From contig NIVC01001549.1 in NCBI GenBank assembly GCA_002269645.1, forward strand, positions 186,001 to 250,000: DNA of 64,000 nt. Direction: 5' to 3'. Each line of letters begins with the position of its first letter. The first letter of the stretch is position 1. Positions 420 through 61,619 of the stretch are shown in pieces. The notes beneath the pieces were generated by a model that saw only the letters and a program-made list of their open reading frames with translations, had not been told where the DNA came from and ran no database searches. The translations under genes and the position numbers were made by a program. The DNA is from Macrostomum lignano (lineage: Eukaryota).

Positions 420-498
420 GTTCGAACAATTACTTGAGACAACATGGTAGTAAATTTTTTATAACAAACAAAAACAATATTATTACTATTATTGTTAC

Positions 499-1313
<815 letters not shown>

Positions 1314-1316
1314 AAT

Positions 1317-1334
1317 TGGCGCCCAATGTGGGGC
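1317..1334 (+). promoter_or_regulatory. Primer-binding site, tRNA-Lys type
   Basis: TGGCGCCCAATGTGGGGC lies 3 nt after the LTR. It has one mismatch to the tRNA-Lys1,2 PBS TGGCGCCCAACGTGGGGC. Confidence 0.9.
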
Positions 1335-1496
1335 CTGCTGTGCCTGTGAGTTGTGAAGGCGAGTGTCTGTTGCATTGTTTATTGTTTATGGTGTTGACCG
1401 ATCGTCTGGGGGTTATCGTTTTGCTGGCTGAAGCGAACTTGGAGCCGAACTTCTCAATCGTGCATCGGAACGTTCCGCACTGCTGTACTGTGACTC

Positions 1497-2459
1497 ATGG
1501 CGGGTATCGATGACCTGATTGGTGCGCTGACGGACAGGCTGCGCGAGAATTTCAACCATGGGCCCCCAAGAGTTGCGAAACCGATGAAGTACGTGACTGG
1601 AATGAATTTCCGCCTGTGGTTGAGGAGTTTCAACGAATTTTGTGAGGCTACTGGGATTGAAGAAGCGGATCGAAGGCCACATCTGATGAGTCTGCTGGAT
1701 CTCAACACAGCTTATCTCGCGGTGGACAACCTTAATCTGGCGGATGATCTGGAGTATGAGGAGTTTACTGAGCATCTGCTGAACAGGTTCACGCAGCATC
1801 GGACTCCGCAGGACTTCAGATTGGAGCTGGCTGGACGGGACCAAGACCAGAAGGAGTCGATGGAGGCCTACGGTGACGCCCTGCTCGAGATAATCCGGAA
1901 CGCCTATCCGACGATTGATCAGGACGCGAGATCGGAGCTGGCCAAGGACCGATTCATGAAAGGTGTGCGAGTAGCCGAGCCAGTCCGAGAGAAGTTGTTT
2001 CTTAGCCAGCCGGAGAGTCTGGCTGCTGCGATCAGGAGTGCCCGTCAGCTGGACGCTGCAATTCGAGCGGCTCACGTCGGGCAGCCGGGCCGAGGCAAGA
2101 CGGCGGCGTTCAACGCTGTAGGTGCAGCCGGGGAGGCAAATCAAGAGGACGTCGGCGCCCTGCGGGCCAGGATCGAGGAGCTGGAACGGCAGCTACGGCA
2201 GAGTCAGGCGTCAGGATCTGGCGGAGGGAAAAGTTCTCAGAGACCACCGCCAGCGAATCAACAGAGCGATGTGGAGTGTTGGAATTGCCACGAGAAGGGG
2301 CACATGGCGAACCGCTGTCCGAAGAAAGCCGGAGGTCAGCACCAAGGAGCTCAAGCGGGACGCGGCATTCGGTGTCACCGGTGTGGCAAACTTGGTCACG
2401 TGGCTGCCAAGTGTCGATCGGAGGGAAATGGAGAGCGGGGCCCGCAGTGGGGGAAGTGA
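1497..2459 (+). CDS. gag: Gag polyprotein (320 aa) with two CCHC zinc knuckles
   Basis: CWNCHEKGHMANRC and CHRCGKLGHVAAKC. Capsid-like region QDQKESMEAY...DRFMKGV. First ORF after the PBS. Confidence 0.93.
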   Translation: MAGIDDLIGALTDRLRENFNHGPPRVAKPMKYVTGMNFRLWLRSFNEFCEATGIEEADRRPHLMSLLDLNTAYLAVDNLNLADDLEYEEFTEHLLNRFTQHRTPQDFRLELAGRDQDQKESMEAYGDALLEIIRNAYPTIDQDARSELAKDRFMKGVRVAEPVREKLFLSQPESLAAAIRSARQLDAAIRAAHVGQPGRGKTAAFNAVGAAGEANQEDVGALRARIEELERQLRQSQASGSGGGKSSQRPPPANQQSDVECWNCHEKGHMANRCPKKAGGQHQGAQAGRGIRCHRCGKLGHVAAKCRSEGNGERGPQWGK

Positions 2460-5400
2460 GCCCCGGAGGTCAGAAACGCCCCCAAATGGAGCCGTCGAGG
2501 AGAAGGGATCAAGCGTCATTCAACTCGTCATCAATCGTCCTACCTGTTGCGTCATCGACCATCTCACCTGTTGTGTCATCAATCGTCCCACCTATTGCGT
2601 CATCAATCGTCCCATCTGTTGCGTCATCAATCGTCTCACCTGTTGCGTCATCAACCATCTCACCTGTTGTGTCATCAATCGTCCCACCTATTGCGTCATC
2701 AATCGTCCCATCTGTTGCGTCATCAATCGTCTCACCTGTTGCGTCATCAACCGTCCCACCTGCTGCTTCATCAACGTTCGCACCGGCTGCGACATCACAA
2801 ACTAGAGCATCTAGCACCATCCGGAATCCGAGTATTTCACAGGCCACCATCAACATCGTCCCGACGTCAGTCTATGTGAGTATAAGGATTGCCAAAGATA
2901 ACCCCGTGTCAGCGCTGTTGGACTCGGGAGCCTCGTGTACCATTATGTCGGAGGCGATGTTCTCGCGGTTGCGGTACAAACCAGAGCTCTTCCGGGGGTC
3001 ATTCGCCAAAGTCACGACTGCAAATGGCAGTCCCATTCAAGTTATTGGTGTCACCACGTTGGACTTAGAAATTGATGAGAGCGTGCCGATCGACGTGCTG
3101 GTGGTGTCAGGAATTGGTTACGACCTCGTGTTGGGTTCGGACTTTCTGCAACGGCATGGCTGTCAAATCGATTACGCCAGAGCAGAGCTGCGACTCAGGA
3201 ATGTAGTGCTTCCGATCCGGTTCCAACGGGAGCGACCAGTCGTGTGCCGGATTCGCCTGAATGAGACAGCAACGGTTAAGCCAGGCCACGAGGCGGTTCT
3301 GCTCGGCCGACTGGATAAGCGAAGAGGTCGAAATGTCCGAGTAGCAGGAATGATGGACCCGTTAAAGCACCCTAAGGGAACTGGAGTGGTTGCCGCGAGA
3401 GCGCTTGTGACACCGGATGAGAACGGAAAGATTGTGGTTCGTGTCTGCAACCTATCTGAGCAACCGGTGCGGCTGCGGCGAGGAGAGGCAGTTGGCTGGT
3501 ATCGACCGCTGGAACTGGAAGAGCAGCCAAGGATCGCGGTGTTGCAGAGTGATTCAGAGGAACGTCCCAGCAAGACATTTAAGGCCGAGGAACGCAAAGA
3601 CGACAAGGTTTGGGAGAAGCTTGGCCAGTGGGGCGACGGAATGGCGACTGAGAGGCAGCACCAGCGGTTTAAGAACTTAGTCGACGCGTACGGTGATCTT
3701 TTCGCGACGGACTCAGCACAGTTGGGTGTGACACCCTTGGTGGAGCACCAGATCGACACTGGAGAGGCCAAGCCGGTCAACATCCCGCCGCGGAGACTGC
3801 CCCCGCACCTTAGGCAAGAAGTGCATGCTCTCGTGGATGAACTTGAGGAGCAAGGACGCATTGAGTCAGCACAGTCTCCTTGGAACGCGCCAATCGTTTG
3901 TGTACGCAAGAAGGATGGCAGTTTACGGATGTGTGTAGACTACCGTGGTTTGAATAAAGTAACGACGAGAGATGCTATTCCGTTGCCGAGGATGGACGAT
4001 GCATTGGACGAACTGGCGGGAGCAAGAGTGTTCAGCTCGATGGACCTCCACAGCGGCTACTGGCAGGTGAAAGTAAGACCGGAGGATCAACTCAAGACGG
4101 CCTTCTCGGTGCCTCTGAAGGGTCAGTACGTGTGGAAAGTGATGCCGTTCGGACTCGTCGATAGCCCTGCAACTTTCACGCGACTGATGGCTCTGGCAAT
4201 GCGCGACGTGGCCTGGAAGACGTGCTTAATCTACCTGGACGATATCCTGGTGTGGTCCAAGACGGTTGACGAGCATCTGGAAAGGTTAGAAGAGGTGTTC
4301 ATACGGCTGCGGAAGGCTGGAGTTAAGTTGAAGCCGGAGAAGTGTCATTTTCTGATGAAGAAGGTAACGTTCCTGGGCCATCAAGTGTCGGAGGCGGGAG
4401 TGGAGACGGAGAGTGAGAAGGTCGAAGTGATCAGAAACTGGCCCCAACCGAAGAACACCAGAGACGTGCAATCGTTCATAGGATTGTGCAGCTATTACCG
4501 CCGTTTTATTAAAAACTTCTCGAGTGTTGCCGAGCCGCTGCTCAGGTTGACTCGCAAAGGTGTCGAGTTTGAGTGGGGACCGGACGAAGAGCGATCGTTT
4601 CGGGACTTGAAAGCGCGGCTGACGAGTACAGACGTGATGGCGTTTCCGGATTTTGGACCCGAGGCTGGCGAGTTCATTCTCGACACGGATGCGAGCTCAT
4701 CTATTGGCGTTGGCGCCGTGTTGTCTCAGAAGCAAGTGGACGGTAGTGAGAAGGTTATTGCGTATGGCTCAAGATCGTTGTCATCGGCAGAGCGGAACTA
4801 TTGCACGACGAGAGTAGAACTGCTGGCGGTGGTGACGTTCATGGTCAAGTATCGGTACTACCTGGCGGGAAGAAGATTCTGCTTGCGAACTGATCACAAC
4901 AACTTGAAGTGGATTCACAATCTGAAGGATCCGGAAGGTCAGTGTGCTAGGTGGCTGGAGAAGCTGGCAGAATTCGATTACTACGTGGTGCATCGCAGCG
5001 GGCTCTGTCATGGAAATGCGGATTCGTTGTCAAGGCGGCAGACCCGGCGACATGCAGGCTTCTTGGAATGTCCGTCCTGCTCAGATGTTGCACCAGTGAT
5101 CTCAAATGGTGTGAGTGCGCTGAACGTGGCTGACGAGCGACATGAACTGGTAAAAGCTCAGGACGAGGAAGACCAGATTCGATGGATGAAGGAGCTGGTC
5201 AGCGGAAATGAGAGCGTGAGCGAAAAGCTGAGATTGACCCCAGGGGGCAAAGCGCTCATGGCGCAGTGCGAGCTGCTCAAGGTGGACGGCGGGATATTGG
5301 TGCGGAGGTGGAAAGGCACGGACCAGATTGTGCTACCACAGTGTCTGCTGCAGAGGATTGTGATAGACTGTCATAGCGGCGTGGCGGGCGGCCATTTCGG

Positions 5401-6727
5401 CCTGCAGAAGACAAAGCGAAAGGTCCTTGCACGGTTCTGGAGACCCGGGATCAGCCGCGAGATCGCTGAGTGCGTAAGGAGCTGCGAAGTCTGCGGCCGC
5501 TCGAAGTTGGCGAAGAAGGCTAGAGCTCCACTGGAGCCGATTCGAACGGGCGAACCTTTTGAGAGAGTGATGGTGGACATTGTCGGGCCGTTGCCAAGGA
5601 TTGCCAGAGGTCATCAGTACATCTTAACGCTGCAGGATGCGTTCACTAAATGGCCGGTAGCGATCCCGATCCGTAACCAACGAGCATCAACAGTGGCGCG
5701 CGCCATATTTGGGCACTGGATTAGTATCTACGGTTGCCCGAGTTCGATTCACAGTGACCAAGGGCGGAACTTCGAGTCTCGAGTAATGCAAGAGCTGTGC
5801 ACGCTGCTGAAAATCCAGAAAACCAGAACCACGGCCTACCACCCAAGTGGAAATGGGCAGGTGGAGAAGTTCAATCAGACGTTGAAGTCAGTACTGCGGA
5901 GCTACATCGCTGAGGGAGCAGAGTCAAACAAATGGGATGAACTAATCGACTCAGCCTTGATGGCGTACCGTTCAAGTGTGCATCGCGGCACTGGCTACAC
6001 ACCGTACTTCCTCCTGCACGGCCAAGAGATGCGATTACCACTGGATGTAGCTTACAAAACACCACAAGAGCCGCTGGACGAGTCAACGTACGTGGCCGGC
6101 TTGAGAAAGCACCTCCATCAAGCACATGAAGCAGTGCGACAAGCGACCGGCACATACCAGAAGTTGCAGAAGGACTATTACGACAAGAAAGTACGGGGAT
6201 CCGCGCACCAACCAGGGGACCGAGTTTTTGTTTTCGTGCCAGCCAAGCCTGGGGAGGTGCCGAACAAGTTCCGGGTTGATTGGAAGGGACCAGTGGAAGT
6301 GGTGCGGAAGATTTCTGAGACCGTGTACGAAGTTCAGAATCCGGCTAATCCAAGGAAGACCAAAAGAGTACATTTCAACAACCTGTCGCCTTTCAAAAAG
6401 TCGAAGTCAGCGACGAACGAAGCGAGACAGGAGGAAGGAGGTGCGGTGACAGAGGACGCGCAGAGCCAAGAAGATGAAGAGGAAGAAGCTGAGCAGGTAG
6501 GCCGACGTGGTCGACCACCACCAGCGGAGGTTGAGCCAGGGCTGGAGAACGAGGTCGATGGCAGCGTGAGAAGCTCGGAGTCGCCGCAAAGTGGCCTGCC
6601 GGAAGAATGGGAAGGACTAGATCCACCAGAAGAATGGGAAGGACCAGAAGCGCCCGCAGCGGAGACCTTCACCACCAGGAGATATCCGACTCGGCTCAGG
6701 CGACCGCCAGATCGGCTAAGGTTCTGA
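2423..6727 (+). CDS. pol: Pol polyprotein (PR-RT-RNaseH-IN) in the -1 frame relative to gag; the start given is the predicted frameshift site
   Basis: Protease LLDSGAS. RT YWQV, MPFGL and YLDD. RNase H DAS...E...DH. Integrase HHCC (H..GGH..CEVC) and DDE (DIVG, DQGRNFE, VEKFN). GPY/F-like WKGPVEV. No internal stops. Confidence 0.96.
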   Translation, partial: GKWRAGPAVGEVSPGGQKRPQMEPSRRRDQASFNSSSIVLPVASSTISPVVSSIVPPIASSIVPSVASSIVSPVASSTISPVVSSIVPPIASSIVPSVASSIVSPVASSTVPPAASSTFAPAATSQTRASSTIRNPSISQATINIVPTSVYVSIRIAKDNPVSALLDSGASCTIMSEAMFSRLRYKPELFRGSFAKVTTANGSPIQVIGVTTLDLEIDESVPIDVLVVSGIGYDLVLGSDFLQRHGCQIDYARAELRLRNVVLPIRFQRERPVVCRIRLNETATVKPGHEAVLLGRLDKRRGRNVRVAGMMDPLKHPKGTGVVAARALVTPDENGKIVVRVCNLSEQPVRLRRGEAVGWYRPLELEEQPRIAVLQSDSEERPSKTFKAEERKDDKVWEKLGQWGDGMATERQHQRFKNLVDAYGDLFATDSAQLGVTPLVEHQIDTGEAKPVNIPPRRLPPHLRQEVHALVDELEEQGRIESAQSPWNAPIVCVRKKDGSLRMCVDYRGLNKVTTRDAIPLPRMDDALDELAGARVFSSMDLHSGYWQVKVRPEDQLKTAFSVPLKGQYVWKVMPFGLVDSPATFTRLMALAMRDVAWKTCLIYLDDILVWSKTVDEHLERLEEVFIRLRKAGVKLKPEKCHFLMKKVTFLGHQVSEAGVETESEKVEVIRNWPQPKNTRDVQSFIGLCSYYRRFIKNFSSVAEPLLRLTRKGVEFEWGPDEERSFRDLKARLTSTDVMAFPDFGPEAGEFILDTDASSSIGVGAVLSQKQVDGSEKVIAYGSRSLSSAERNYCTTRVELLAVVTFMVKYRYYLAGRRFCLRTDHNNLKWIHNLKDPEGQCARWLEKLAEFDYYVVHRSGLCHGNADSLSRRQTRRHAGFLECPSCSDVAPVISNGVSALNVADERHELVKAQDEEDQIRWMKELVSGNESVSEKLRLTPGGKALMAQCELLKVDGGILVRRWKGTDQIVLPQCLLQRIVIDCHSGVAGGHFGLQKTKRKVLARFWRPGISREIAECVRSCEVCGRSKLAKKARAPLEPIRTGEPFERVMVDIVGPLPRIARGHQYILTLQDAFTKWPVAIPIRNQRASTVARAIFGHWISIYGCPSSIHSDQGRNFESRVMQELCTLLKIQKTRTTAYHPSGNGQVEKFNQTLKSVLRSYIAEGAESNKWDELIDSALMAYRSSVHRGTGYTPYFLLHGQEMRLPLDVAYKTPQEPLDESTYVAGLRKHLHQAHEAVRQATGTYQKLQKDYYDKKVRGSAHQPGDRVFVFVPAKPGEVPNKFRVDWKGPVEVVRKISETVYEVQNPANPRKTKRVHFNNLSPFKKSKSATNEARQEEGGAVTEDAQSQEDEEEEAEQVGRRGRPPPAEVEPGLENEVDGSVRSSESPQSGLPEEWEGLDPPEEWEGPEAPAAETFTTRRYPTRLRRPPDRLRF
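2518..2800 (+). repeat. 24-bp coding minisatellite (about 11 units) in the pol N-terminal spacer
   Basis: Units like GCGTCATCAATCGTCCCACCTATT encode ASSIVPSV-type Ser-rich octapeptides in the pol frame. Confidence 0.9.
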
Positions 6728-6847
6728 GCGGGTTGGGGATTGTCGGCGGGTTAGGTGGTTGGAGCGGGTGGATGAGTCGGCAGGCACACGGACCAGGTTT
6801 AGTAGCGGAGAAATGAGAGTTTAACGGCTAGAAACGGCACTCCGTAG

Positions 6848-7660
6848 ATGTCCTTGTACGACGAACTGGAGATCGACCAGTGGGTGGAGGCAACTGCAGT
6901 CAAGAGAGCCTATCGGCGGCTAGCCCTGAAGTATCACCCGGACAAGCACCCGGACCGAGCATTCGCAGAAGAGAAATGCAAAGCCCTCAACGTCGCGTAT
7001 GAAATTCTCGGTTGCCCATTTCGGCGGTGGCTGTACGACCTGTTCGGTGAGGAGTCCGTGTCTTTCAGTGGTGCGGTGGAGTTGGCTAGACAGGTTCAGC
7101 CCCCGCCAGGCATTCCCGTGCCAGAGGACATCCTGGAAGCAATCAGGCTGGAAGATGAGGACATGCCGAGCGAGGACGAGCAGTCGGATGCAGACGCCTG
7201 CGTTGGAGACGACGAACCCGTGGAAACCGACAGTGAGTCTGCCGTCAGCGACGGTAATCGGCCGCCCGACTGGGAGGCAGAGGAGCAGGGTTTTCGTCAG
7301 TCATTTGAGCGAAGCTATGCGCCAGACAGCGGCTATTGCATCATTATCAGTGACGACGAAACAGACCAGATCGGAGAGATGGAAACAGACGGGGAGGACC
7401 TGACGGATGTCGAGGGTTGGAAGCTGGTACCGGTAGGGGCGACGACAGTCGAGATGGAGGAGCTACCGTTACCGAGCACAACGAGATTTGTGGAGCTGCG
7501 CCGGAGTCTGAGAACGGCACTGCTGAAGGGCGAGGAGGAAGAGATCGTGAACGTGTTTGAGGAGCTGGCTGACCTGTTTAGGGTGCGGCGAGAAGAGCCG
7601 AGTCGTTATCTGACGGCGGTGACACTTCAAGTGCTTAAATTTCTGCGCCGGGACATTTAA
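6848..7660 (+). CDS. Retrotransposon-borne J-domain (DnaJ/Hsp40-like) protein, 270 aa, with an acidic middle and a predicted helical C-terminus
   Basis: MSLYDELEI...VKRAYRRLALKYHPDKHP...AEEKCKALNVAYEILG..RRWLYD is a textbook J-domain with an intact HPD. It lies between the pol stop and the PPT, inside both LTRs. Confidence 0.93.
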   Translation: MSLYDELEIDQWVEATAVKRAYRRLALKYHPDKHPDRAFAEEKCKALNVAYEILGCPFRRWLYDLFGEESVSFSGAVELARQVQPPPGIPVPEDILEAIRLEDEDMPSEDEQSDADACVGDDEPVETDSESAVSDGNRPPDWEAEEQGFRQSFERSYAPDSGYCIIISDDETDQIGEMETDGEDLTDVEGWKLVPVGATTVEMEELPLPSTTRFVELRRSLRTALLKGEEEEIVNVFEELADLFRVRREEPSRYLTAVTLQVLKFLRRDI

Positions 7661-8300
7661 GTGACGTGGTCCAAGGGACGCGGTCGTCGGAGCGGTTGGA
7701 AACGCGAATGTTTAAAGCGAGCAGCGCGAGTGATGCGGAAGGTGGTGATCCCTCGGTTCGAGCTGCTAGGTGCGGGTCAGGTCCAGGCGCTGCTGCGCTG
7801 GTGTGCTCGTGTGGTGGCGTGCGAGTGCTAGTGGGGTGCGAGTGTGGGTGTGCTGGCGGGGTGGCAGGCAGGTGCCCTTGAGGGTTGTCAGTTGTGTTGG
7901 CTCGCGTTCTCGGAAAGGGGTGCTGTTTCGGGTCGTTGGGTAGGGGGGCAACCGAGGTGATAGGGACAAGGCGGTGGCCGGTTCCGGAGCGGAGCGAGGA
8001 CGGACCCGAGGCCAGGGCGGACGCCCACGCTGCACCCGGGCCCGGGGACAGGGCCACCGTTGCGGACGAAGTTGTGCTCGGACACCACCAAGGGAGGCGA
8101 TTGGACCCTGCCTGAAGTGACCGTTCTATTTGTTCTATAGTTATCGTTCTATAGCTATCTATTTGTAATTCATCGTCTCATCACTTGATTTTTGGGGCCA
8201 TGCCTAGTGTCATGTTTTTTGTTCTTTAGCATTATCTTTTGTGGTGGTGGGTAATTACGGTACTACGCGTTAATTTGCGAATCGTTGGGTTTCTTTTTTT

Positions 8301-8311
8301 GGAGGGCGGGG
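8301..8311 (+). promoter_or_regulatory. Polypurine tract
   Basis: GGAGGGCGGGG is preceded by a T-run and directly abuts the 3' LTR TG at 8312. Confidence 0.85.
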
Positions 8312-9124
<813 letters not shown>

Positions 9125-9317
9125 TTACTAATATAATTATTGACATTTGTTCAACAGTGATTAGACTTAAATTTTCATTAAGTTCATTAATTGGCACATT
9201 TCCGATGTAGGAGTAATCGTGCAAAGCACGCGAACCATGGGTTCGATTTACCTTCATTTTTTTATATATATTTTTCACAATAAATGTCGTTTCTGTTATA
9301 GAGTAATAGTTCATTTT

Positions 9318-9632
9318 TTACATAAAAATTTCAATTTCATTCTCAGAATCACTAGTTTCATATGAGCTATTTGTTGAGTTGGAATCATCTGAACGAACCT
9401 CCCAATCATCCGAATTTAAATAATCTCCAAGTTGAAATATTAACTCACCCTCTTGTTCTAAATCATACATCCCATCCAACTCTAATGGATAAAGTTTTAG
9501 GTCGTGCTTGTCGTCATACTTTAAATAAACTTCATCAATTATTCCATTCAAAATATGTTGTTTTATTATCTCTGCATTTTTAGCAACAGTCTCAAAAGTA
9601 TCACTAACAGAAAAGGTGTAAACTCGGGTCAT
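9318..9632 (-). CDS. Polinton acidic hypothetical protein (104 aa)
   Basis: AAAAATG start context and D/E/S-rich C-terminus. Its stop is 3 nt upstream of the next ATG (TAA AAA ATG), which is virus-like packing. Confidence 0.6.
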   Translation of the reverse strand: MTRVYTFSVSDTFETVAKNAEIIKQHILNGIIDEVYLKYDDKHDLKLYPLELDGMYDLEQEGELIFQLGDYLNSDDWEVRSDDSNSTNSSYETSDSENEIEIFM

Positions 9633-9728
9633 TTTTAGTAACAGAAAAAGACCCTTCGCGCCTGCGGCGCGTGCGAGGGGTTATAGAGAATTGGAAGTGT
9701 TAGAAGTGTTGGGGAGTGTTGGATGTGT

Positions 9729-12340: not shown

Positions 12341-14472
12341 GCTTACATATTCCAACGCATCAGAAAATGGAGGATATCAATAAGTTGCAACAATCAAAGT
12401 GGAGTCCTCTATGGAGTAAACAGAGACGACAACATAAACACCATAGCTTGCAACAGCTCAGCAATTGTTCGGTTGTACAGACCAGATTTCTCAATTGAGA
12501 CGGTTGGTACAGGTGGATTTACTGCCTATTTCGATCGAATCACTCAGATCCGCGGTGAGTCCCATGCATTTTTAAAGTTGGTCAAGTTCTTCTCAGTTTA
12601 AATTTAAGTTTGGATTTTTATTCTAGATGGCGCAACCGACTGCAAAAGATTTGAAATCAGCCAAACTGCTCAAACGAGTGCCAGCCTGCCACTCCTGTAC
12701 ACGCAGACATTAGACCGCCACAGTAAGTACATGTGTATGTGTAACAATCAGGGGCGTCGCCACGGGGTGCAGGGGGGATATGTCCCCCCAGTAAATGCTA
12801 TGGGGGACATGCTAATGCCTTGTCCTCCCCACCCCACCTTTGTTGACCTGTTATGGAAATTAATATTTTGCTTCAGGGCCACAAAGCATAGTGCCTGCGG
12901 CGCTAAAATGACTGAATGCTGCACTAAAATGAGTGTCTGTGGCGCTAAAATGAGTGTCTGCGGCGCTAAAATGAGTGTCTGCGGCGCTAAAATGAGTGTC
13001 TGCGGCGCTAAAATGATCGCTAACAACACCGATTCTAAAAAATGTACATGTAGGAATTTAGTCATATACATGTACATGTGGAATTCTTGGCTTTGTCCCC
13101 CCACCATAAAATCCATGGCGACGCCCCTAGCAACAATACAAAATTGAGTCTCATTTACTCAAAAAACACAAAATTTGCAAATTTGATTTGGCTAATTTTA
13201 AACGTTCATCTTGCTTCTAGACTCATCAACAAAGCAGCATTTCTACTGCTCTTACTCACTCAGGCCGCCGAACGGCAGTGACCTCATCGTTGAACTGCGA
13301 ATGCCTTTCAGTAACGACCAGCTGGACCAATTCTGTCTAGAGATTAGCGCCCAAAGCATTCGACCGAAACTGATATTTATCATTACTAAACTGGATGGAA
13401 GCAAAACTTTGTTAAGCTTATGCAACAATAACATTCCTGGTGGCTTGTCAATGCAGAGCAATTTAAAAGTCTGGCAGGGTGAAAAACTAGAGATTGATAT
13501 CACAGTGGCTAAAATCTTTACAAATTGGAATAGGTCAGAGGATTCAGAGCGCCTCCTTCGATATAACTTCGATGTTGACGCTAATTTCATTGTGAGTCCA
13601 GGTGAGTTCTTGTTGGAGTAAATTAAAACACCAATCATATCGTAATATGCATATAACTTAACTCCGGTTGGATAACCTTTAGTGCAGGTCTGCACAAGAC
13701 TAACCAGCTCAAGTGAGCAGTGGCAGCTGAGCACAGACGGTACACAGATGCTCAACACTATGACAATCCCTCCTGACAACACTCAGACTGACTGCAATCT
13801 TCAACTGGATGCCTTCACCGCTGCTCGAATCATAAACAACACAAAACCCGCCAGTTCTGTGCGTGAAATCTCGAATTTATCGAAGGCAGATTGCTGGAAG
13901 CTGGAAGTGAAGCTGGACAAGTTCAGTACGGTTTGCGGACTCAAGCAGCTCGTGCTGACTGCGTCTCACTGGGACTCTCTGGCAGCGTCGGTCGAGCACA
14001 TGCAGCGAGAGGTCTGCGGCTCGAACTCGCAGTTCGAATTCAGCGTTGAGACCAGCCTGCAAGCGGAAGGCAGCGGAATGAGTCTCGCGTACAGCGGAGT
14101 GAGGTCCGGCTTCAGGGCTCGGTTCTCCATCTCAAGCTGCGGTCAGAGCTCTGCTCAGAGGGAGCAGCTGGTTGAGTCTCCAGGTTAGTAAAAATTTCTT
14201 CATAATTCTGAAAAAATTTTATCTGGCTTCACCAAACAGAAATCTCTTTTATTACAGCCTCCGTGCAATCAGCTTCCTCGTTCTTTATCTTCCTTGTGGT
14301 TTTGCTGTCTCTGGCAAATGTTTTTGTGTTGATTTTCATGTTTCGGAAAAACATTTGGCGACAAGTGACGCACTGGATCGATGCAGCACAGCAAAGACAA
14401 GCTGCCCAGCCTGTCTTGAACACATCTGAGGCAGATCATTTGAACCTTCTTTCTGATGTACAAGATACTTAA
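12341..14472 (+). CDS. CUB-like-domain type I membrane protein; 3' exons only, 5' end unresolved
   Basis: Phase-consistent GT-AG exons 12341-12554, 12627-12722, 13221-13601, 13683-14183 and 14258-14472 give 468 aa. CUB-like motifs are GGFTAYF, YCSYSLRPPNGSDLIVEL and EVCGS...SGFRARF. The TM segment FFIFLVVLLSLANVFVLIFMF is followed by RK and a short tail. Confidence 0.6.
12749..13129. mobile_element. hAT-type MITE (381 bp) in an intron
   Basis: 17-bp TIRs CAGGGGCGTCGCCACGG / CCATGGCGACGCCCCTA match 15/17. The 8-bp TSD GTAACAAT (12741-12748) / GCAACAAT (13130-13137) matches 7/8. An internal 21-bp tandem repeat GCGGCGCTAAAATGAGTGTCT is present. Confidence 0.85.
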
Positions 14473-16953: not shown

Positions 16954-17586
16954 TTAACTCACTTTCGCCGCTGACATTGTGCAGTGAAGTCCAGCTGCCT
17001 GAAGTCCAGAGCTCTGACCGCAGCCCGAGATGGAGAACCGAGCCCTGAAGCCGGACCTCACTCCGCTGTACGCGAGACTCATTCCGCTGCCTTCCGCTTG
17101 CAGGCTGGTCTCAACGCGGAATTCGAACTGCGAGTTCGAGCCGCAGACCTCTCGCTGACTGTGCTCGACCGACGCTGCCAGAGAGTCCCAGTGAGACGCA
17201 GTCAGCACGAGCTGCTTGAGTCCGCAAACCGTACTGAACTTGTCCAGTTTCACTTCCAGCTTCCAGCAATCTGCCTTCGATAAATTCGAGATTTCATGCA
17301 CAGAACTGGCGGGTTTGATGTTGTTTGCGACTAGAGCAGCGGTGAAGGCATCCAGCTAGGAGGGGTTGTTTGGCTCCACCCGTGGGGGTGGGTTTGCGGC
17401 GTTGGGGTGGGTGGTTGTGTTCTGTGCCTTTTTAGGCCTCGCCTTGAGCTGAAATCGCTTGTTCTCGCAGTTTTGAATTTTTAGGTGGATAGGTGAATAG
17501 AATTTAGGTGGATATATACTGGCTACAAGCAGGATCGAGAGCAAAATGCCCAGGCAATAAAAATCCGCACTAAACTGTCGCATCAT
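16954..17586 (-). pseudogene. Inverted partial paralog of the CUB-like exon, fused to a signal-peptide-like ORF, with one in-frame TAG
   Basis: 17355-17007 is a 349-bp inverted copy of 13805-14153. ORFs 17586-17356 and 17355-16954 share a frame and are separated only by the TAG at 17358-17356. Confidence 0.55.
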
Positions 17587-21888: not shown

Positions 21889-23411
21889 TCAGCCGCTGTT
21901 GAGACAGTTCCTGAAATTTTGCAAAATTTTTTTTAAAAGAAAGTACGTTTTTAAACGTAAACCAATGATAAAAACATGCCTACTCACATCCAGTCTCTTT
22001 TTTATTTCCTCCTGCACGATGTTTGGAACCCAGTGACGAACTGGCTTCCGAAGTAGGCGCAACAGTAGCTCCTGATCAGGGCAATACCGGGCACTGATTG
22101 CAATTTCCTGCAGGTCTGCGCCATTGCGATCAGCAACTGCTTGAATCCACAGGTAAGTGCGCTCGTCGCTAGGGACAAACTCGAGGCGCAAACCATGCAG
22201 CAAGGCGTCAAAGTTAACAAAATAATACGTATTCATGTTTGACAGCTGCAATGGAAAGCATTCGGAGAAAAATCTGGGCAGAAAGTCAAGCAAAGGCTGC
22301 CGGCTGAACTTGAAGCAAAACTTCCAAGCCGAATCACTGTTCGACAGGTGGTTCCGGACGAGATCTTCTGTGGCGTTATTTGCTGTCATTCTTGCGGACC
22401 AATCGATTCCAAGGCTCACAGGAAACTGCCCAAAGTCAGTCAGAATTTTCACTGCAGCCTCTCGTTGTCCCAACTTGAGACAGTTGAGCGCTCTGAGAGT
22501 CTCCCTAGCGGAGCGAGCGCAGTCTGGCAGTCGATCAGTTAACTCAGCAACTGTCTGCTGCGAATAAGCCTCGCTTTTCGCTGCGCTCAGTAAGTACAAG
22601 CAACGCCTTACCACACCGTAGATCTCGTGGTATTTTAGCTCTTTAGACTGGGACATCGACCCAGGAAGATGTGGCAGAATTTGAAACGGGTGAAAGTAAA
22701 ACACACCAGTCTCACCAAGTGGCTTCAAACTGTTCTTGTATTCTTCTAGATATTGCGGCAGGTTCCTGATCACCGTTTGCACGGCCTCCATTACAGTCTG
22801 CAAGGCTTGAATAACATCTTGCGGACTTTGTAAACTTAATCCTTTCAAATACAAGCTAGCATCGCACAGAAAGAAATGATTCATTATTCTCCCGTTTAAA
22901 TTATTTTCCGTACAGTTTTCTTTGATACTGTCGTATAGAACTTCCAAGGAGCGCTTAATAAGGTTTATTAGATTCTTCGGATATTTCCAAGCTTCCACAG
23001 GGGTTTCTTCGACCAATCGAAATGTCAAGGTTTTAGCGTGATAAGACTTCAAGCCTTGAATGTTTAATTTATCTTTGTTACCAATAACCTTCTTGACGAG
23101 ATACTTGAGCGAGACAAAGACCTGTCCCTGCAAAGTAGTCAGACTTCTCAGCAGTCGCTTCTCCAGAAAAGTTGTGCTCACCCTGAGCTGCTGGCCAGCC
23201 ATGCCGGCTGGGGCTGCGTGGACGATATGACACGGAGAGTCAACCAACTCGTCCTGGAGTGACTTCAGCACGGACTCGAGGATATTCGAGCGCCGCAATC
23301 GTTCCGGTAAAAAAATCGCGATTGGAGGATAGCAGCAGAGGCGACAGGCGTCAACATTGTCCACGGCGGGCTTGAGCTCAGACCCGTTGATCGGTTTGGC
23401 TGGATTCGACG
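21889..23411 (-). CDS. Exon 3 of the ankyrin-cGLR gene: Mab-21/cGAS-like core and helical C-terminal region
   Basis: VDNVDACRLCCYP (third catalytic Asp), LRVSTTFLEKRLL, SLKYL, LKSYHAKTLTFRLVEETPVEAW and MNHFFL match Mab-21 motifs. The acceptor TTCTCCACAG ends at 23412 and is in phase. Confidence 0.85.
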
Positions 23412-24041
23412 CTGTGGAGAAATAAATGGCAAATTCAAATGAAAATAACTTTCGGATACATATAGAATTTGTGAAGCATCCGTTTAAATAAATATTCATG
23501 TGCTTGTTTTACTAGTCGAACATTTTCTGCATTATAAAACATTTAACAAAAGTACATCTACGCCATTCAACTCATAATTTACTTTTTGCCTTAATTGAAC
23601 ACGGCAAAAGATCGCCCACTGATAACTAATTTCAAAGGTGTGTGTGTACGGGTATTGGCTCCGCGATTTAGATCAGCAAACGAGAAGTGAACGCTCGGAA
23701 AACGATGCTGGTCGATCGTAACTTCGAACCTCGATCTACAACATGGAGTCTTGCACCTTTGAACTAGAAGTAACGCTCCTGTTTTTTTCTGTCCCAGTTT
23801 TAATGGCAACTGTCCTTTGTGAACTTTTGATTGGTAAAAACTTATTAGCTGAGTTTATATCCTCCTGCTCTTTTGTCTGTAAAGAGTTTACCTAGTTTAG
23901 TAAAACATAGCAATTAGCCCTATCAAGTAACCAGGGTACACACAAGGCCACAACCCTTTTGGGAATGTTTTTAAGGTTTTCTTTAGTAGGCCAGGTGCTC
24001 CCATAGACTTCGAAATGGCATAAAGTGAAATTAACTCTTAC

Positions 24042-24795: not shown

Positions 24796-26747
24796 CCATC
24801 TGATTTTTCCACAGAATTCGTACTATCTTTAGCTTGGTCCGAAGAATCAGATTTCGACAAGATCTCTTCCACATTCGCTAGCGCCTTTTTTAGCAATGCG
24901 ATTACTTTATAGTGCCGATTTTGCGAAGCAATGAAAACCGGTGTCGCTTTGTAGCTTGTCTGAATCGTTGGGTCTGCCTGTGCTTTAAGAAGCGCATCAA
25001 CCACACTCCCGTGACCTTTCTGCGAGGCAATAAAGAGCGGCGTTTCTCCTGTAATTAGCTGTTAATTCACGCTTGCTTGAGCTGTTAAAAGCAGTTGCAC
25101 AACGTTGCGATGGCCGAATTGTGACGCGACGTAGAGCGGCGATGCGCCTGTTTCAGAGCAGGCGTCGATGTCTGCACCTGCTTTTAGTAGCAAGCGCACA
25201 ATTTGGTAGTGTCCATTTTGTGATGCAATATAGGCCGGTGTCTCTCCGATTTTTGATTGAAGATTAACGTCGGCTCGAGCTTGGATAAGAGACTCGACAA
25301 CTCTTAGGTGACCGTTTTGTGCAGCGATATACAACGGCGTTGCACCGGACTTCGCCTGGAGACTAACATTTGCACCGGATCTAATAAGCAGGTCTACAAC
25401 AATGCAATGACCTTCTTGCGATGCCGTGTAGATGGGTGACAGGCCGCTTCTTGATTGCAAGTTGACTTCGGCTTCGTTCTCGATTAGGCCTTTAACTATT
25501 TTATAATGAGCGTGTTGTGCTGCCACAAGCAACGGTGTCTGACCGAGCTGGTCTTGGGCATTAACCTGAGCTGCGGCTCTAATAAGAGAGCGGACTACCC
25601 TTAGATGTCCATTTTGCGACGCAATAAATATTGGCGTTGCGCCTGAATTTGTTTGAATGTGAATATCCGCGTTTGCTGCGATTAGCAGATCAACCACAAG
25701 GTTGTAACCTTTCTCGGCTGCGATGTATATTGCTGAAGCTCCATTGTTTCTCTGCAAATTAAGATCAGCCTGCCGCTCGATGAGCAGCCGAACGACCTCC
25801 GGGTGGTTTAACTGAGAAGCTATAAACAGTGGTGTCACCCCGTGACTTTCCTGAACGTCGCAGGTGGCTTGCGCTTTCAGTAGTACCTTCACCACTTCAC
25901 CGTGGCCCATGAGAGATGCAATAAACAGTGGTGATTCACCGGAACTTCTTTGAAGGTTTATATCGGCTTGAGCATTGATGAGCAATTCGACTGTGTTAGC
26001 ATGACCCTTCTGTGAAGCGATGTAAATTGGTGTTGCGCCCAAATTTTCTTGCATGTTTACATCAGCTTGAGCTTTGATTAGCTCATCTACAACTCTGATG
26101 TAGCCATTCTGGGAAGCCGTGTACAGTGGCGATGATCCAAATGAGATTTTCTTCGCGTCAACATTAGCGCGTGCCAAAATCAGACGCCTGACAATATCGT
26201 GATGGCCACTTTGGGATGCAATCCAAATTGGAGTGATGCCATTGGTAGTTGCTAAATTCACATCCGCATTGGCTTTAATCAGAGCCTGCACAATAAAACA
26301 GCGGCCCTGCTCTGATGCAATATAAACTGGTGTTGATCCGGAAACGGTTCGAATATTTACATCAGCTTGATAGTCGATCAGCAAATTTACAACGGCAAGG
26401 TGACCCTCCTTGGACGCTAAGTAGAGAGGAGAAATGCCAAAGCTGTTTTGCAGATTGACGCTGGCACCGAAGTCAATCAGGACTCGAGCCGCATCAGTGC
26501 GTCCCTCTCGACTGGCTAAATGTAGAGTGGAGGTGCACATTCTGTCTCCAGTGGGCAGCACCAGTCGGTCAATGTCGGTCCTAGATTTCAATGCCGTTTC
26601 CAAGTCGCGTAAATTTCCATGCTTGATAGCCTGCAGTAAAAATTCTTCAACAGCAGAATCTTTCCAGTCTTGTTTAGTAGAATCGCCAATAGCTTGCATC
26701 AAAGCTGATAGTGCTAGCTTTAAAAGTACACCAACAGCTAGCTGCAT
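24796..26747 (-). CDS. Exon 1 of the ankyrin-cGLR gene: about 17 ankyrin repeats, with an in-frame TAA at 25064-25062
   Basis: 33-aa G-x-TPLxIASxxGHxxVVxxLIxAxADVN repeats continue in frame after the TAA (QLITGETPLFIASQKGH). Donor GTAAG at 24795. Confidence 0.9.
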
Positions 26748-27461
26748 GATTATGTCAAAACATTAGCAATGGTGAAACCAGTATAATTTGTTGGTAATTT
26801 TTTCTGGCCTTTTTACAAATAAAGTTTGTCTGATCTTGTTTTACGAGTATTAAAAATTCCTGTCTTGCAATAAGAGACACTCCTAAGGCTTCAGCAAGTG
26901 CTTTTCAGTTCCTACAGTGTACGCAAAGGCGCAAGGCTGTACAGTGGGGTAGGGAAATAGTGCGTACAAAATGCTTCCATTTTTCCTGAGCGGACTATCT
27001 TTTTCAGACCTCAATCGTACAATGCACGCGTACTAGACGTCTTTTTAAATACTATTTAATATTTTTGGATGAACTTGCTGAAGGCTCGTTTGTACCGTGG
27101 TCATGAGGGGCTGAAAATTGCGTCGCTGTTAAAGTTCGTGGCGCTGCAATGTACAGTGGACGTACCAGGTAAATATGCGTTCAGAGAAGCAATCAATAAT
27201 CATTCAATAGCTTTTCTGCACGGGCGTGCGACAATTAGACTTAATAAAAGTGCTGAATTAGCACATTTGAAAAGACACCTTATCGTAGTTTTAAGAAAGT
27301 CGAAAAGCAATATTAGAGCAATATAAAAAAGTTTACTACGTTTCCCGATGGCTACTCATGCTAGTAGTATTATCCGAATTTTATCTTCCTAAAGATTCAA
27401 GCTGCCGCCATAAAATCTGCTTGGGAATAATAAAAAAAACGGCTGATTACACTTGCCCGAA

Positions 27462-27725
27462 TGTGCAACCGACAGCTCAGCCGCAGCTATTGCGCGGCGC
27501 ATCTGAAGGCTGCGTACGGCTGTTCAGTCCAAGGACTGGGGAGTCGCCTGTCACCACACACACCTTCAATTACCCCAGCTAATGCTGGCACCCATTTTAC
27601 AGTTGAGTAAACTGAAGCAATTGAGAGTTAAGTTTCTTACTAAAGGACACAAATTGTTCCGAGTGGGTCGAGAATCGAACCCCGACCTTACAGTCATGAC
27701 TCTATAACCACCAGGCTAAAACTAC
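27462..27725 (-). mobile_element. tRNA-derived CORE-type SINE, copy 1
   Basis: A/B-box head (TAGCCTGGTGG...GGTTCGATTC) and CORE-like GTGTCCTT...CTGTAAAATGGG. The 3' tail is shared with the copies at 40329-40590 and 61355-61619. Confidence 0.85.
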
Positions 27726-29298: not shown

Positions 29299-32200
29299 TT
29301 AAGTTTCTCCAGCTCCACTTGACTGCGTCAAAGCGAACATTGGAGCCTGCGCAATGAGCAGCTCAACGGCGTCCTCGCGCCCCAGTTCCCGCAGCACGTC
29401 AACCAGAGCTCCGACATTGGTGCCGCCCGGCCCGCCGACTCGTCGCCACTCGTCCAGCAGGACAGCCGTGCGGCTGCGCAGCCACTCGTTGCCGCTGTGC
29501 ACCGCGGGCACGGAGTGGGTCAGGCCGAGCCGCACTGCCAGCAGGCACCAGTCCTTGCCGAGCGGATCCGGCGGGTCAAACATGCGGCAGAGGCGCTGCA
29601 GAGTCGGGGCTCTAAGCGACGACAGTGGAAGCTGGGGGCCCAGGGTTAGATGCGACAGTAGCTCTCGGCTGCCAAAGCAGATCAGATTTTCCAGGTCCTC
29701 TTCTTCTTCCTCCTCGTCTTGTGTCTCATCGCACGTTGAACCGCTGGCGGGAAACGCGATCGGGATAGTTGGCGGCGGAAAGCTGATCAAGCTGCCCGAC
29801 TCACTGGACTCCCCTGTTGTGCTTTGGTGCTTCTGCATTGCTCGAAACACGGCACTCTGCGGCACGGCCAGTTTAAGTCTCCTTGGAAACTGACGCAGCT
29901 CTTTCGGGCTGAGCAAAGCCAGATCGAACTCTAGGCCGGGGCACATGTCGTCAATTGTCTGCTCCAACAGGCCGGCGATGTCTTGGCAGATACCAAACAG
30001 AAGCTGGGCCCGGGCCGGCGGACCCCTGGCTCTAAGTCGGATCAGCTGATCCGATTCTTCGAGTTGCAGCATGCACTCGACGCAGCCTTCCAGAGACAGT
30101 TTTGAGCCGTGGAACCATTGGAAGAGATCGATGCGCAGCGGCTCCAAAGGCGGTGGTCTGCAGGCGGCTGCTTGAATACTCCGACGCAGACGGCACTGAA
30201 CTCGAGGGAAAATATGCACTAGCTGGGAGGCGGCCATCGATGCCTTCAGTTGCCAGCCGCCATACACTGAGTTCTCGTGCTGAGCTGTCGGCTCCCATGG
30301 ACTTCGGCCGCTCTCCAAGAAGTTCAAACAGGGAAACTCGTACTGAACATCTTCGTCACTGTCAGAATCTTCGGCGCCACCATCGAGGTCAGCTCGAGTG
30401 CAGAGATCCAGTGCAGACAGCAGTCGAACCAGCTGATCAGCAGCAGTTTCACCCGTCATGAACTGAACGTCATTCACTGAGAATGTACCTGTGACGCGAG
30501 CCTGCGCAATGTTGTCATACGACAAAAGATAGCCTAGTACATCGGAACAGAGCCACTGCGGACTGAGCACAATCATGTCCTGCTCTACTTCTGATTCTAG
30601 GTAGACGACATCGCCGGTGTATTGCAGCTCCTGGATGAGATCTTTCAGATGATCATCTGAGCATAATGGGTTGACTTTGCCCCTTACGGCTTCAATAAAC
30701 TGCTGCCAGGTGAAAACTGGGAATTCTGTGGCTCCAGCCCATTCTGGTAGTCGGCTCGCCACAGTGTCGAGAAGACCATTGCCTCGAGGCAGGTGCCGCA
30801 AAATTTCCGTTCGCCAATCAGCCAGTCTCTGTCGAAGCGACTTCATTTCAGCAGACATTGCCTCGCTGGTGTCAACCGCGAAGACCTCGTGGCAAACTTC
30901 GAGCCTGTACTGAGCCAATTCCTGCACCTCGAGAAGCAATCGGTCAGCGTCTGCACTCTCAAGGAGACCACGCGGTCCGTCGCCACGAAAGACAGTCGCC
31001 GCATCTGCGTGCGTTCCAATTAGCAGCACTCGGGCGAGGGTCTTTGGCTTGCCGCAGTATCCTAGAGGTTCCCTTGGTGGCAATCGGGCCAGCAAAAAGT
31101 GCAGCCAGAACAGGACCCTCTGACGCATCGTCTCGTAGCATTCCGCTAAGCTGAACAGAATGGCGTGTACGCACGAAGTGTCGCCAATAAAATGATCGTA
31201 AAACAGATAGTAGGGCTCGTAACCAGAGAATTCCCACACGCTGAAGTCCCCAGCGCCAGTGATGTTCAAGTTTTGAACAGCTATGCCGCGTGTGTAGGCC
31301 TCGTGTTGGGCGTCAAAGCTAATTTCTGATGGTGCAGAGGACCGCTGCAACAGCGAGAAGCACTGCCGTCGGTCCAACTCGTCGTCACAGTCGCCAACAA
31401 TTACTTGACCAGTGGAGGCGCCGCTTCCCCCACCGCCGCCGCTGCCGCCGGCAAGAAACGTCCGACGCAAAAAGCCGGTGATTCGGTTCGAGCGCAAACT
31501 GTCAATTAGAGCAGTCTTTCCGCTGCCGCTGTGACCGAACACCTTCAGCTTGATTCTGGGCAGGCTGCGCTGAGTAGGCACCAGCTGCTCAACGCAGACC
31601 GCTCGTCGCTCAGGTCGCATCCGGCCCAGTAAACTGGCCGTCATTGTGTGACCCTGCGCGAGTGACATAACCTCGGGTAGAAGGCCCTCTTGACTCGCCA
31701 GCTGCGGATTAGCGCCGGCGAGAAGAAGACAGCGAACAACTTCAAGATGACCAGCTCTGGCCGTTTGATGCAGTGGCGTGAGTCCTTGGACGTTGACAGC
31801 GTCAACTCGACAACCGTAGGCACACAGCGCTTGGACAACTGGCAGCTGCCCTAAACGACTCGCTGCATGCAATGGAGAGTCGCGTTCCGACGAGTCGAGC
31901 TGATCAAGCGGTGCTCCAGCGCTTATTAGTAGCATAGCCATAGCCTGGTGCTGTCGTTGAATAGCATGTCGCAGCGGACCCCAGCCCTCGCTGTCCGGAA
32001 TATCCGGTCGAGCCCCGGCACGAAGGAGGACGCGCGCGACTTCGATGCCCAAGGATTCGCTGACGATCTCGGAGGCCGCTATCACTAGCGGCGTGCGCTG
32101 GTGCCGCCTGTCGCGCGAATTCGGACTGGCGCGTCGACTGCCGAGTAGAAGTAGGCGCAGAATAGTCAGGTGACCCCCGCGACAGGCCAGGTGTAGCGGC

Positions 32201-32637
32201 GTCTCACCAGCTCGATTCTGGCCCTCCGGGCACACCGATCTATCCAGGAAAAAAGCCGCCACCTCGTCGTTGCCGACGTGGCTAGCCAGGTGAAGACCAT
32301 TTTCGCAATCGGTGTTCAACTGGTGCAGGTCGGCGCCTCGCTGCTCCAACACCATCAGAGCCTCGACGGAACCGCTATCCGCCGCAACGTGCACGACCGT
32401 TCGACCACTGCTGTCGCGACAGTTCAGGTCGACAGTAGGCGGCAGCGTCAGCAATGCGTCGCGAACTTGGCTGGGATCGCCGCTTGCGGCAGCTTCAAAC
32501 AGGCCGGCCAGCGGGAAGGACGCATCACCGCCTGCCGCTTCGCCTTCGCCGATATTCAAAGAAGCGTCGTTGGCATCGTTCGCCAAGGAGTTGACGCCGT
32601 CCGCAATGCTTGAGCCGTCAATTTCTAGTAGACTCAT
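29299..32637 (-). CDS. DAPK1: DAPK-family ROCO protein (ANK x8-9, ROC, COR, death domain); no kinase domain in the ORF; 1112 aa
   Basis: RIKLKVFGHSGSGKT (P-loop), TRGI, VWEFSGYEPYY and THAD are DAPK-type ROC motifs. The death domain reads DPLGKDWCLLAVRLGL...LRELGREDAVELL. An in-frame TAA lies two codons upstream of the ATG. Confidence 0.9.
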   Translation of the reverse strand: MSLLEIDGSSIADGVNSLANDANDASLNIGEGEAAGGDASFPLAGLFEAAASGDPSQVRDALLTLPPTVDLNCRDSSGRTVVHVAADSGSVEALMVLEQRGADLHQLNTDCENGLHLASHVGNDEVAAFFLDRSVCPEGQNRAGETPLHLACRGGHLTILRLLLLGSRRASPNSRDRRHQRTPLVIAASEIVSESLGIEVARVLLRAGARPDIPDSEGWGPLRHAIQRQHQAMAMLLISAGAPLDQLDSSERDSPLHAASRLGQLPVVQALCAYGCRVDAVNVQGLTPLHQTARAGHLEVVRCLLLAGANPQLASQEGLLPEVMSLAQGHTMTASLLGRMRPERRAVCVEQLVPTQRSLPRIKLKVFGHSGSGKTALIDSLRSNRITGFLRRTFLAGGSGGGGGSGASTGQVIVGDCDDELDRRQCFSLLQRSSAPSEISFDAQHEAYTRGIAVQNLNITGAGDFSVWEFSGYEPYYLFYDHFIGDTSCVHAILFSLAECYETMRQRVLFWLHFLLARLPPREPLGYCGKPKTLARVLLIGTHADAATVFRGDGPRGLLESADADRLLLEVQELAQYRLEVCHEVFAVDTSEAMSAEMKSLRQRLADWRTEILRHLPRGNGLLDTVASRLPEWAGATEFPVFTWQQFIEAVRGKVNPLCSDDHLKDLIQELQYTGDVVYLESEVEQDMIVLSPQWLCSDVLGYLLSYDNIAQARVTGTFSVNDVQFMTGETAADQLVRLLSALDLCTRADLDGGAEDSDSDEDVQYEFPCLNFLESGRSPWEPTAQHENSVYGGWQLKASMAASQLVHIFPRVQCRLRRSIQAAACRPPPLEPLRIDLFQWFHGSKLSLEGCVECMLQLEESDQLIRLRARGPPARAQLLFGICQDIAGLLEQTIDDMCPGLEFDLALLSPKELRQFPRRLKLAVPQSAVFRAMQKHQSTTGESSESGSLISFPPPTIPIAFPASGSTCDETQDEEEEEEDLENLICFGSRELLSHLTLGPQLPLSSLRAPTLQRLCRMFDPPDPLGKDWCLLAVRLGLTHSVPAVHSGNEWLRSRTAVLLDEWRRVGGPGGTNVGALVDVLRELGREDAVELLIAQAPMFALTQSSGAGET

Positions 32638-39596: not shown

Positions 39597-59595
<19,999 letters not shown>

Positions 59596-61354: not shown

Positions 61355-61619
61355 GGGTGGTTGTAGCCTAGTGGTTAGAGCGTCAGACTCACGATTTGAA
61401 GGTCATGGGTTCGATTCTCGTTCCCACTGGAACAGTTTGTGTCCTTGAGCAAGCCTTTGCCTTGAGCATTGCTTCACTTCACACAGCTGTAAAATAGGTA
61501 CCAGCATTAGCTGGGGTAATTGAGGGTGTGTGGCGATCCCCCCAGTCCTTGGAATGAACAGCCGTACGCAGCCTTCAGATGCGCCGCGCCATAGCTGCGG
61601 CTGAGCTGTTGGTTGCACA
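61355..61619 (+). mobile_element. tRNA-derived CORE-type SINE, copy 3
   Basis: GTAGCCTAGTGGTTAGAGCG...GGTTCGATTC head, GTGTCCTTGAGCAAG...CTGTAAAATAGG core and the shared tail. Confidence 0.87.

Follow-up and report, generated by a model that had tools for sequence, protein, structure and literature searches.

J-domains with an HPD motif stimulate Hsp70. To our knowledge, a small number of animal transposons have been found to make proteins that influence host control. In the Ty3/Gypsy elements Juno and Vesta of bdelloid rotifers, a family-specific ORF3 that is not an env follows pol; excerpts of the original report describe gains and losses of these ORF3s across the tree, typical expression from spliced messages, and a cargo that is either a GDSL esterase or a DEDDy exonuclease, and they contain no mention of DnaJ, TatD or chaperones (Rodriguez et al. 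2017, PMC5408684). Orchid Gypsy elements have likewise captured a host-type domain as an extra ORF, an AlkB m6A demethylase proposed as a host-element regulator; the excerpted text, which does not mention DnaJ, presents it as an enzyme gained recently in a plant (PMC9289625). In errantiviruses, the third ORF after pol is env-F, which is expressed from a spliced subgenomic RNA and has a signal peptide, a furin site, a fusion peptide and a membrane anchor; in the springer subclade, splicing completes the env start codon (bioRxiv 10.1101/2023.08.03.551782, in part). Meanwhile, J-domains have been described in viruses. Polyomavirus large T antigen recruits Hsc70 and carries an N-terminal HPD J-domain of ~70 aa, after which come a disordered region and domains for target binding (PMC11720896, in part). 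A partly available preprint reports J-domains, as self-encoded Hsp70 co-chaperones, in 11 RNA virus families, where they are part of the polyprotein of RdRP viruses (bioRxiv 10.1101/2022.02.15.480533).

The ORF3 described here joins two of these kinds, the non-env ORF3 cargo of Ty3/Gypsy elements and the virus-encoded J-domain, and adds a domain of no known family. Like the ORF3s of Juno and Vesta it follows pol, whereas its product is a J-protein; in contrast to the orchid gene it is present in deeply diverged lineages with module swaps; and in contrast to the J-domains of RNA viruses it is a stand-alone ORF of a retroelement. Its layout is similar to that of the T antigen, although the latter belongs to a DNA virus and has origin-binding and helicase domains (PMC11720896, in part). 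Structure searches gave no sequence or fold match between ORF3 and T antigen, and the likeness is used as a working analogy only. Literature searches, judged from their listings, returned no description of a Gypsy lineage with a J-domain ORF, in line with the preliminary description, which knew of no standard lineage of this kind; Repbase, GyDB, Dfam and Biryukov et al. 2020 lay outside their coverage. In the available text of a study of M. lignano LTR elements, the terms DnaJ, J-domain, Hsp40, ORF3, chromodomain and TatD occur nowhere, and its pipeline apparently annotates standard domains only (PMC12801592).

The window, that is, the whole 64-kb stretch analysed of Macrostomum lignano contig NIVC01001549.1, contains a complete Ty3/Gypsy element at 499-9124. 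The hallmarks are all present, namely two TG...CA LTRs, a primer-binding site (PBS), a polypurine tract (PPT) and a target-site duplication, and according to Pfam the gene order (gag, then PR-RT-RH-IN in pol) is that of Ty3/Gypsy. The features are as follows.

495..498, no strand: left target-site duplication, 4 bp (right copy at 9125-9128)
499..1313, plus strand: 5' LTR, TG...CA, with a TATA-like sequence at 792 and AATAAA at 917
979..984, plus strand: candidate splice donor within the LTR, predicted from sequence; its joint is absent from the contig matches listed
1317..1334, plus strand: PBS, from sequence
1497..2459, plus strand: gag, 320 aa, with two CCHC knuckle stretches (PF00098, E 4.9e-8)
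2423..2429, plus strand: candidate -1 slippery heptamer, read from sequence; pol is in the -1 frame of gag
2459..6727, plus strand: pol, with protease, RT, RNase H and integrase (Pfam); frame open from 2006
2526..2797, plus strand: 24-nt units repeated in tandem, within the 5' portion of the pol frame
6845..6847, plus strand: candidate splice acceptor (YAG), abutting the ORF3 start codon on its 5' side
6848..7660, plus strand: ORF3 as open in the window copy, 270 aa, with an early end (ORF list, copy comparison)
6854..7039, plus strand: J-domain with HPD, aa 3-64 (Pfam and structure matches)
7064..7159, plus strand: two additional helices C-terminal to the J-domain, aa 73-104, pLDDT about 90 (model of a 327-aa sister copy)
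7181..7453, plus strand: acidic disordered linker, aa 112-202 (composition and model)
7481..7831, plus strand: basic five-helix domain, aa 212-324, to the end of the family frame; cut by the window-copy stop at 7658-7660
8301..8311, plus strand: PPT, from sequence
8312..9124, plus strand: 3' LTR (LTR comparison)

The LTRs align over 815 columns (499-1313 against 8312-9124) with 811 identities, two mismatches and two one-base gaps, and at 811/813 identical positions they mark the element as young. We take the PBS to be tRNA-Lys-like. Pfam found no chromodomain in pol, so the element lacks the chromodomain that chromoviruses carry at the integrase C-terminus. Four Ty3/Gypsy clusters, Gmr1/Osvaldo, Mag, CsRN1 and Mdg3, are given for this species in the available part of PMC12801592. 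The element is surrounded by an AT-rich stretch (3-419 and 9321-9680); the frame at 3-419 has no Pfam match and presumably resembles the end of a Polinton/Maverick-type integrase. The preliminary description had called the element intact. This holds for its LTRs, target-site duplication, PBS, PPT, gag and open pol but not for ORF3, which ends early at codon 270.

ORF3 lies between pol and the PPT, as first reported, and residues 3-64 of its product match DnaJ (PF00226, E 3e-16; 59.7 bits, with the cut-off at 27.8). Pfam, a structure model and structure matches agree on the four-helix J fold in the window family, with HPD between helices II and III; the J-domain is thus complete, as had been claimed. 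The best match by sequence among solved structures is human DNAJB2 (E 6e-15), and DNAJC12 matches in fold (Z 9.5, rmsd 4.3, 85 aligned). In the model of the 327-aa sister copy, the J-domain and two further helices (aa 1-104) reach a pLDDT of about 90, and the linker (aa 112-202) is modelled as disordered (pLDDT <50). The linker is as acidic as had been noted, with 35 D/E against 4 K/R in 106 aa. The J-domain shares its sequence and fold with cellular J-proteins such as DNAJB2, DNAJC5 and DNAJC12, whereas Pfam found no G/F region, zinc finger or DnaJ C-terminal domain, the parts of class A/B DnaJ proteins, in six family ORF3s and that of family G; the acidic linker of the window-family ORF3 is a further contrast to these classes. 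The initial proposal that ORF3 is not an env, and that it has no transmembrane segment, is borne out: the highest Kyte-Doolittle 19-residue mean in six family ORF3s is 1.04-1.49, which gives no hydrophobic segment, Pfam finds DnaJ only, and the model is soluble and all-helical. An env is thereby ruled out, and the product differs from env-F (bioRxiv 10.1101/2023.08.03.551782, in part) in being a J-protein without a hydrophobic segment.

The C-terminal part is a domain of ~115 aa with five helices (pLDDT 89.5 when modelled alone) and a basic composition (27 K/R against 13 D/E in 120 aa). A helical C-terminus had been predicted and such a domain is indeed modelled, but the window copy holds its first half only: the stop at codon 270 (7658-7660) falls in the middle of the domain (aa 212-324), and the homologous frame runs on to 7831. 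Six loci are at least 91% identical, comprising three with 327 aa, two with frameshifts and the window copy itself. Since the stop is absent from the contigs in all four runs where the codon is covered, it is either private to the window copy or an assembly error. In the six family ORF3s, no Pfam match of the helical domain is better than E 0.005; sequence comparison with the PDB gave only designed helical bundles and weak matches, Foldseek against PDB and BFVD gave no match at E<=0.001, and the ESM Atlas gave nothing usable. The best fold match (VIA) is M-Sec (Z 8.4, rmsd 3.9, 117 aligned), which is within the range of generic helical bundles. The domain is therefore without a known family or a clear fold match, and these searches do not establish a new fold. 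The premature stop, the second half of this domain and the whole clade described below had been overlooked at first reading.

The search of the genome of M. lignano with ORF3 gave at least 140 matches. Integrase lies directly upstream at 25 of the 30 best loci, the other five being fragments of a diverged sister family. Among 40 more loci sampled across score classes, 22 lie downstream of a pol of their own, one adjoins the pol of another element, four hold a piece of ORF3 by itself and 13 are host DNAJ genes of the ordinary kind. In total, seven lineages, A-G, have ORF3 after pol, together with the sister families A2, B2, C2, D2 and E2, and LTR-paired copies are known for all seven; other copies, and related families with the ORF at the same position, for which a search had been suggested, do exist. 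A long open ORF3 frame is present at 21/25 loci of family B, 14/20 of C, 17/23 of D and 10/17 of G, counts in which unfetched matches were placed by equal score and frame length and which may include assembly duplicates. In all fetched copies of E and E2, ORF3 is broken.

The RT identity to the window element is 52-65% for the ORF3 lineages and at most 51% for other families (150 of 4282 candidates scored). In an RT tree of 29 sequences with midpoint root, the ORF3 lineages and their derivatives form one branch (support 96/94), and the six outgroup loci are all free of J, helical and TatD matches and of ORFs of at least 150 aa after integrase. The groupings E+G, B+B2, C+C2 and D+D2 are concordant across the RT, J and helical trees where these are resolved. 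A one-off host capture is ruled out by the seven lineages with ORF3 after pol in one RT clade, and we regard ORF3 as an accessory gene that a single Ty3/Gypsy clade has long passed on by vertical descent. In the suggested phylogeny against host DNAJs, with 15 host J-domains, a common origin for the J-domains of the elements is neither rejected (p-AU 0.30) nor shown. The match to one host J-protein, presumably DNAJC9-like, is slightly extended, and the extension is too slight to make it a usable candidate for the donor.

Some side observations concern individual members. At least four different PBS sequences occur in the clade (A; B and C; D; E, F and G), so the primer tRNA has switched several times. 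In a family F locus, L085 (G000:C506:46000-55999), an internal deletion fuses RNase H in frame to the J-domain, with integrase missing, and the fusion protein is a database gene model, P0002. Another family F locus, L059 (G000:C20:437900-447899), has a 3.35-kb tandem duplication of RT-RH-IN-J (99.6% identical) that is either real or an assembly artefact. At L110, a truncated D-like element is followed by Polinton-like frames.

The whole ORF3s of the other lineages are only 23-35% identical to that of A, and the core common to all seven is the J region and the basic helical domain. The HPD motif is kept in A-F; in G it is lost and the DnaJ match is weak (E 0.0025), with an ORF3 of 558 aa retained. 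Four of the seven lineages carry neither of two further domains. In family D, a chromodomain (PF00385, E 1.4e-12) is inserted in ORF3, not at the integrase C-terminus, and its best solved relatives are Swi6/HP1 (E 1.7e-10). If the aromatic cage is placed as we take it to be, two of its three aromatics are present in D, the third being missing, and all three in D2. In E, E2 and G, a TatD-like domain is appended (E 4e-9 to 7e-6), which scores above the PF01026 cut-off in E (36.6 bits) and E2 (34.1 bits) and just below it in G (26.1 against 27); against solved TatD proteins, E is about 0.002. In one aligned stretch of E2, Gln replaces a His that is kept in two solved TatD proteins and is presumably a metal ligand.

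Between sister families, ORF3 generally diverges more quickly than pol. The identities in RT, J and helical domain are 97%, 81% and 66% for B/B2, 87%, 71-77% and 56-58% for C/C2, and 92-93%, 55-58% and 71-74% for D/D2; for E/E2 they are 84%, 73% and 75%, with 58% in the TatD-like domain. Within A, identity is 97-98% in the helical domain, the same level as in pol, and 93% in the J region. Such divergence, as expected of a host-facing protein, suggests this role, and it also fits relaxed constraint or recombination.

ORF3 has also been lost. Family H, about 7 kb in length, is nested in the clade as sister to G (RT 81%, branch 99/96), and J, helical and TatD matches are absent from all five of the full-length copies examined (two of these have a flank in common). 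A 207-aa frame after pol in H has no Pfam match and no start codon near its beginning. Family I retains only the end of the TatD-like domain at all four loci, and two derivatives of C2 have no J, helical or TatD match. The LTR pairs of H are 97-100% identical, and those of H and I are near-identical where LTRs were fetched. The recent mobility of H without ORF3 indicates that ORF3 is dispensable in cis. This, together with the loss of HPD in G, weakens the earlier suggestion of a role in particle or RT assembly, where such a role is taken as required; an obligatory assembly role may survive only if ORF3 comes in trans, e.g. from G or E.

The sequences suggest that ORF3, like env, may be translated from a subgenomic RNA made by splicing. 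An AG directly abuts the ORF3 ATG in A, B and D, against a background of 11% (44/395 ATGs), precedes it by one base in F, and lies within 16 bases in C and G. GTAAG occurs in the 3' half of seven of eight LTRs, with a chance expectation of 13-50% each per LTR half; there is none there in family G. In E and E2, the candidate donor exon ends in A and the candidate acceptor precedes TG, so splicing could complete the start codon, as in springer (bioRxiv 10.1101/2023.08.03.551782, in part). In family E, a Met in the same frame is present further upstream as well. Contigs from three runs that are guessed to be RNA give thin cover of 27-30 of the 30 element bins, and among the contig matches listed for them there is no splice joint to 6848. 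The same three runs (X1-X3) contain, at a depth of 22-61, a long contig that matches briefly in integrase and in the J region; its loose ends resemble family B, which may be the better expressed member. A heat-shock link was considered for the clade and set aside: a canonical heat-shock element (HSE) is absent from all 14 clade LTRs, so the clade is apparently not among the heat-induced families of PMC12801592. Three gene ids of element ORF3 copies are absent from the supplements to that study, but its expression table follows a different id scheme, which makes the absence uninformative.

A profile of the helical domain gave nine matches in 1.84 billion representatives, comprising two Macrostomum lignano proteins, six Logan or JGI proteins and one HEAT-repeat protein (P0010), a compositional match that was dropped. 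The J-domain and helical domain occur together in five external proteins (P0005, P0006, P0008, P0009 and P0014), and HPD is kept in all five external proteins that include the J region. P0009 also has a chromodomain and groups with D, P0014/P0004 group with B, and P0007 has at most 42% identity in the genome of M. lignano (G000). Searches for the DNA context of these proteins gave nothing in viral contigs or in a metagenome scan with P0008; a second metagenome scan gave 80 loci, none with a helical, TatD or RT match, and a region search with P0006 returned only P0006 itself. We infer that the external relatives lie in retrotransposons. Database copies of the element ORF3 bear no label other than 'hypothetical protein' or 'J domain-containing protein', those of family D being in NCBI under M. 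lignano; element genes thus account for some of the gene models annotated as 'J domain-containing' in this species.

Since HPD is kept in six of the seven lineages, an Hsp70 adaptor encoded by the element may be soundly inferred. Our preferred reading, to which we give a probability of about 0.45, is that ORF3 acts in trans as an adaptor that would bring Hsp70 to host repressive chromatin or silencing complexes. ORF3 would be translated from the spliced subgenomic RNA; the helical domain, together with the chromodomain or TatD-like domain in some lineages, would bind a target on chromatin or nucleic acid; and the J-domain would recruit Hsp70 to this target and trigger its ATPase. The target complex would then be remodelled or dismantled, by analogy with the polyomavirus T-antigen J-domain. 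The most likely target would be a complex through which the host represses or silences these elements, making ORF3 a trans-acting counter-defence factor. The chromodomain, TatD-like and basic helical domains suggest chromatin or nucleic acid rather than Argonaute loading, a link that rests on a minority of lineages (readers in three) and on a charge argument. The main observation outside this explanation is family G: it has no HPD and keeps a long ORF3 at 10/17 loci, which argues that Hsp70 recruitment is not the sole or indispensable function. In a bolder and more doubtful version, the clade would possess a modular anti-silencing machine, in which a constant pair, the J-domain and a novel helical domain that binds nucleic acid, is combined with swappable readers, aims Hsp70 at repressed copies and strips silencing complexes from them. 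The HP1-like chromodomain and an inactive TatD-like domain may be such readers, and ORF3-less families such as H would be cheaters on the trans-acting product.

The other explanations have to be weighed against the same observations. The J-domains in RNA-virus polyproteins have been proposed to aid polyprotein folding or virion assembly (bioRxiv 10.1101/2022.02.15.480533, in part), and by extension ORF3 could be a private co-chaperone that directs Hsp70 to Gag, Gag-Pol or RNA for folding, particle assembly or uncoating, with the basic helical domain binding element RNA. We consider this unlikely, because all five copies of H lack ORF3 and all four loci of I have only a partial TatD-like domain, with near-identical LTR pairs; moreover, in most sister pairs the change in ORF3 outpaces that in Gag or Pol, and it is hard to see what a chromodomain would do in a cytoplasmic particle. 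Alternatively, ORF3 could tie the pre-integration complex to chromatin and use Hsp70 to clear or disassemble chromatin at the site, as a separate-protein counterpart of the chromovirus integrase chromodomain. Chromodomains are reported to direct integration to heterochromatin (work cited in the available part of PMC9289625), family D has one of HP1 type, and the window copy lies in an AT-rich stretch with an integrase-like frame. However, most lineages have no chromodomain and the ORF3-less families still integrate with 4-bp duplications, which makes this role quite improbable.

ORF3 might instead act as a decoy, diverting Hsp70 from small-RNA loading or from restraint of the heat-shock response and thereby weakening silencing in general. 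Argonaute proteins are loaded by Hsp70/Hsp90, Hsp83 has been linked to the loading of piRNAs (PMC11125864, in part), and other LTR families of M. lignano exploit heat shock (PMC12801592, in part). This is a distinctly unlikely account, given that Hsp70 is abundant and the elements appear thinly covered in the RNA-like runs (contigs only), that a conserved targeting domain would be superfluous for a pure decoy, and that the LTRs lack a canonical HSE and G lacks HPD. That ORF3 is a piece of a host DNAJ carried without benefit is very improbable indeed. Loss or breakage of ORF3 in H, I, the C2 derivatives and all fetched E and E2 copies would fit it, but the pattern of HPD and helical domain persists across ORF3s of such low identity, four families have an open frame in the majority of their copies, and the helical domain has no host counterpart among the 1.84 billion representatives. 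The adaptor directed at silencing complexes is therefore the reading we prefer. If it is true, chaperone hijacking extends from DNA and RNA viruses to retrotransposons. The clade-wide J-protein in the env slot, with variants that add a chromodomain or a TatD-like domain or that lack HPD or the whole gene, is a ready comparative series, and transgenesis is available in M. lignano (PMC12801592, in part).

Other features were observed in the window. On the minus strand, 29299-32640 is an uninterrupted frame of 1113 aa, and 21889-23508 is a frame of 539 aa. We take the former to contain ankyrin repeats, ROC-COR and a death domain, like DAPK without the kinase, and the latter to be like the C-terminal part of a Mab-21/cGAS-like nucleotidyltransferase. 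A long frame at 25062-26762 (minus strand) is presumably ankyrin-repeat-like, and that at 62073-63008 (plus strand) Tudor-domain-like. In addition, there is an inverted repeat of 349 nt (13805-14153 and 17007-17355) whose arms are 96% complementary and 2853 nt apart. A tRNA-Val call at 61356-61429 lies inside a three-copy window repeat, with related arms at 27462-27682 and 40329-40577, and this repeat is probably a tRNA-derived SINE.
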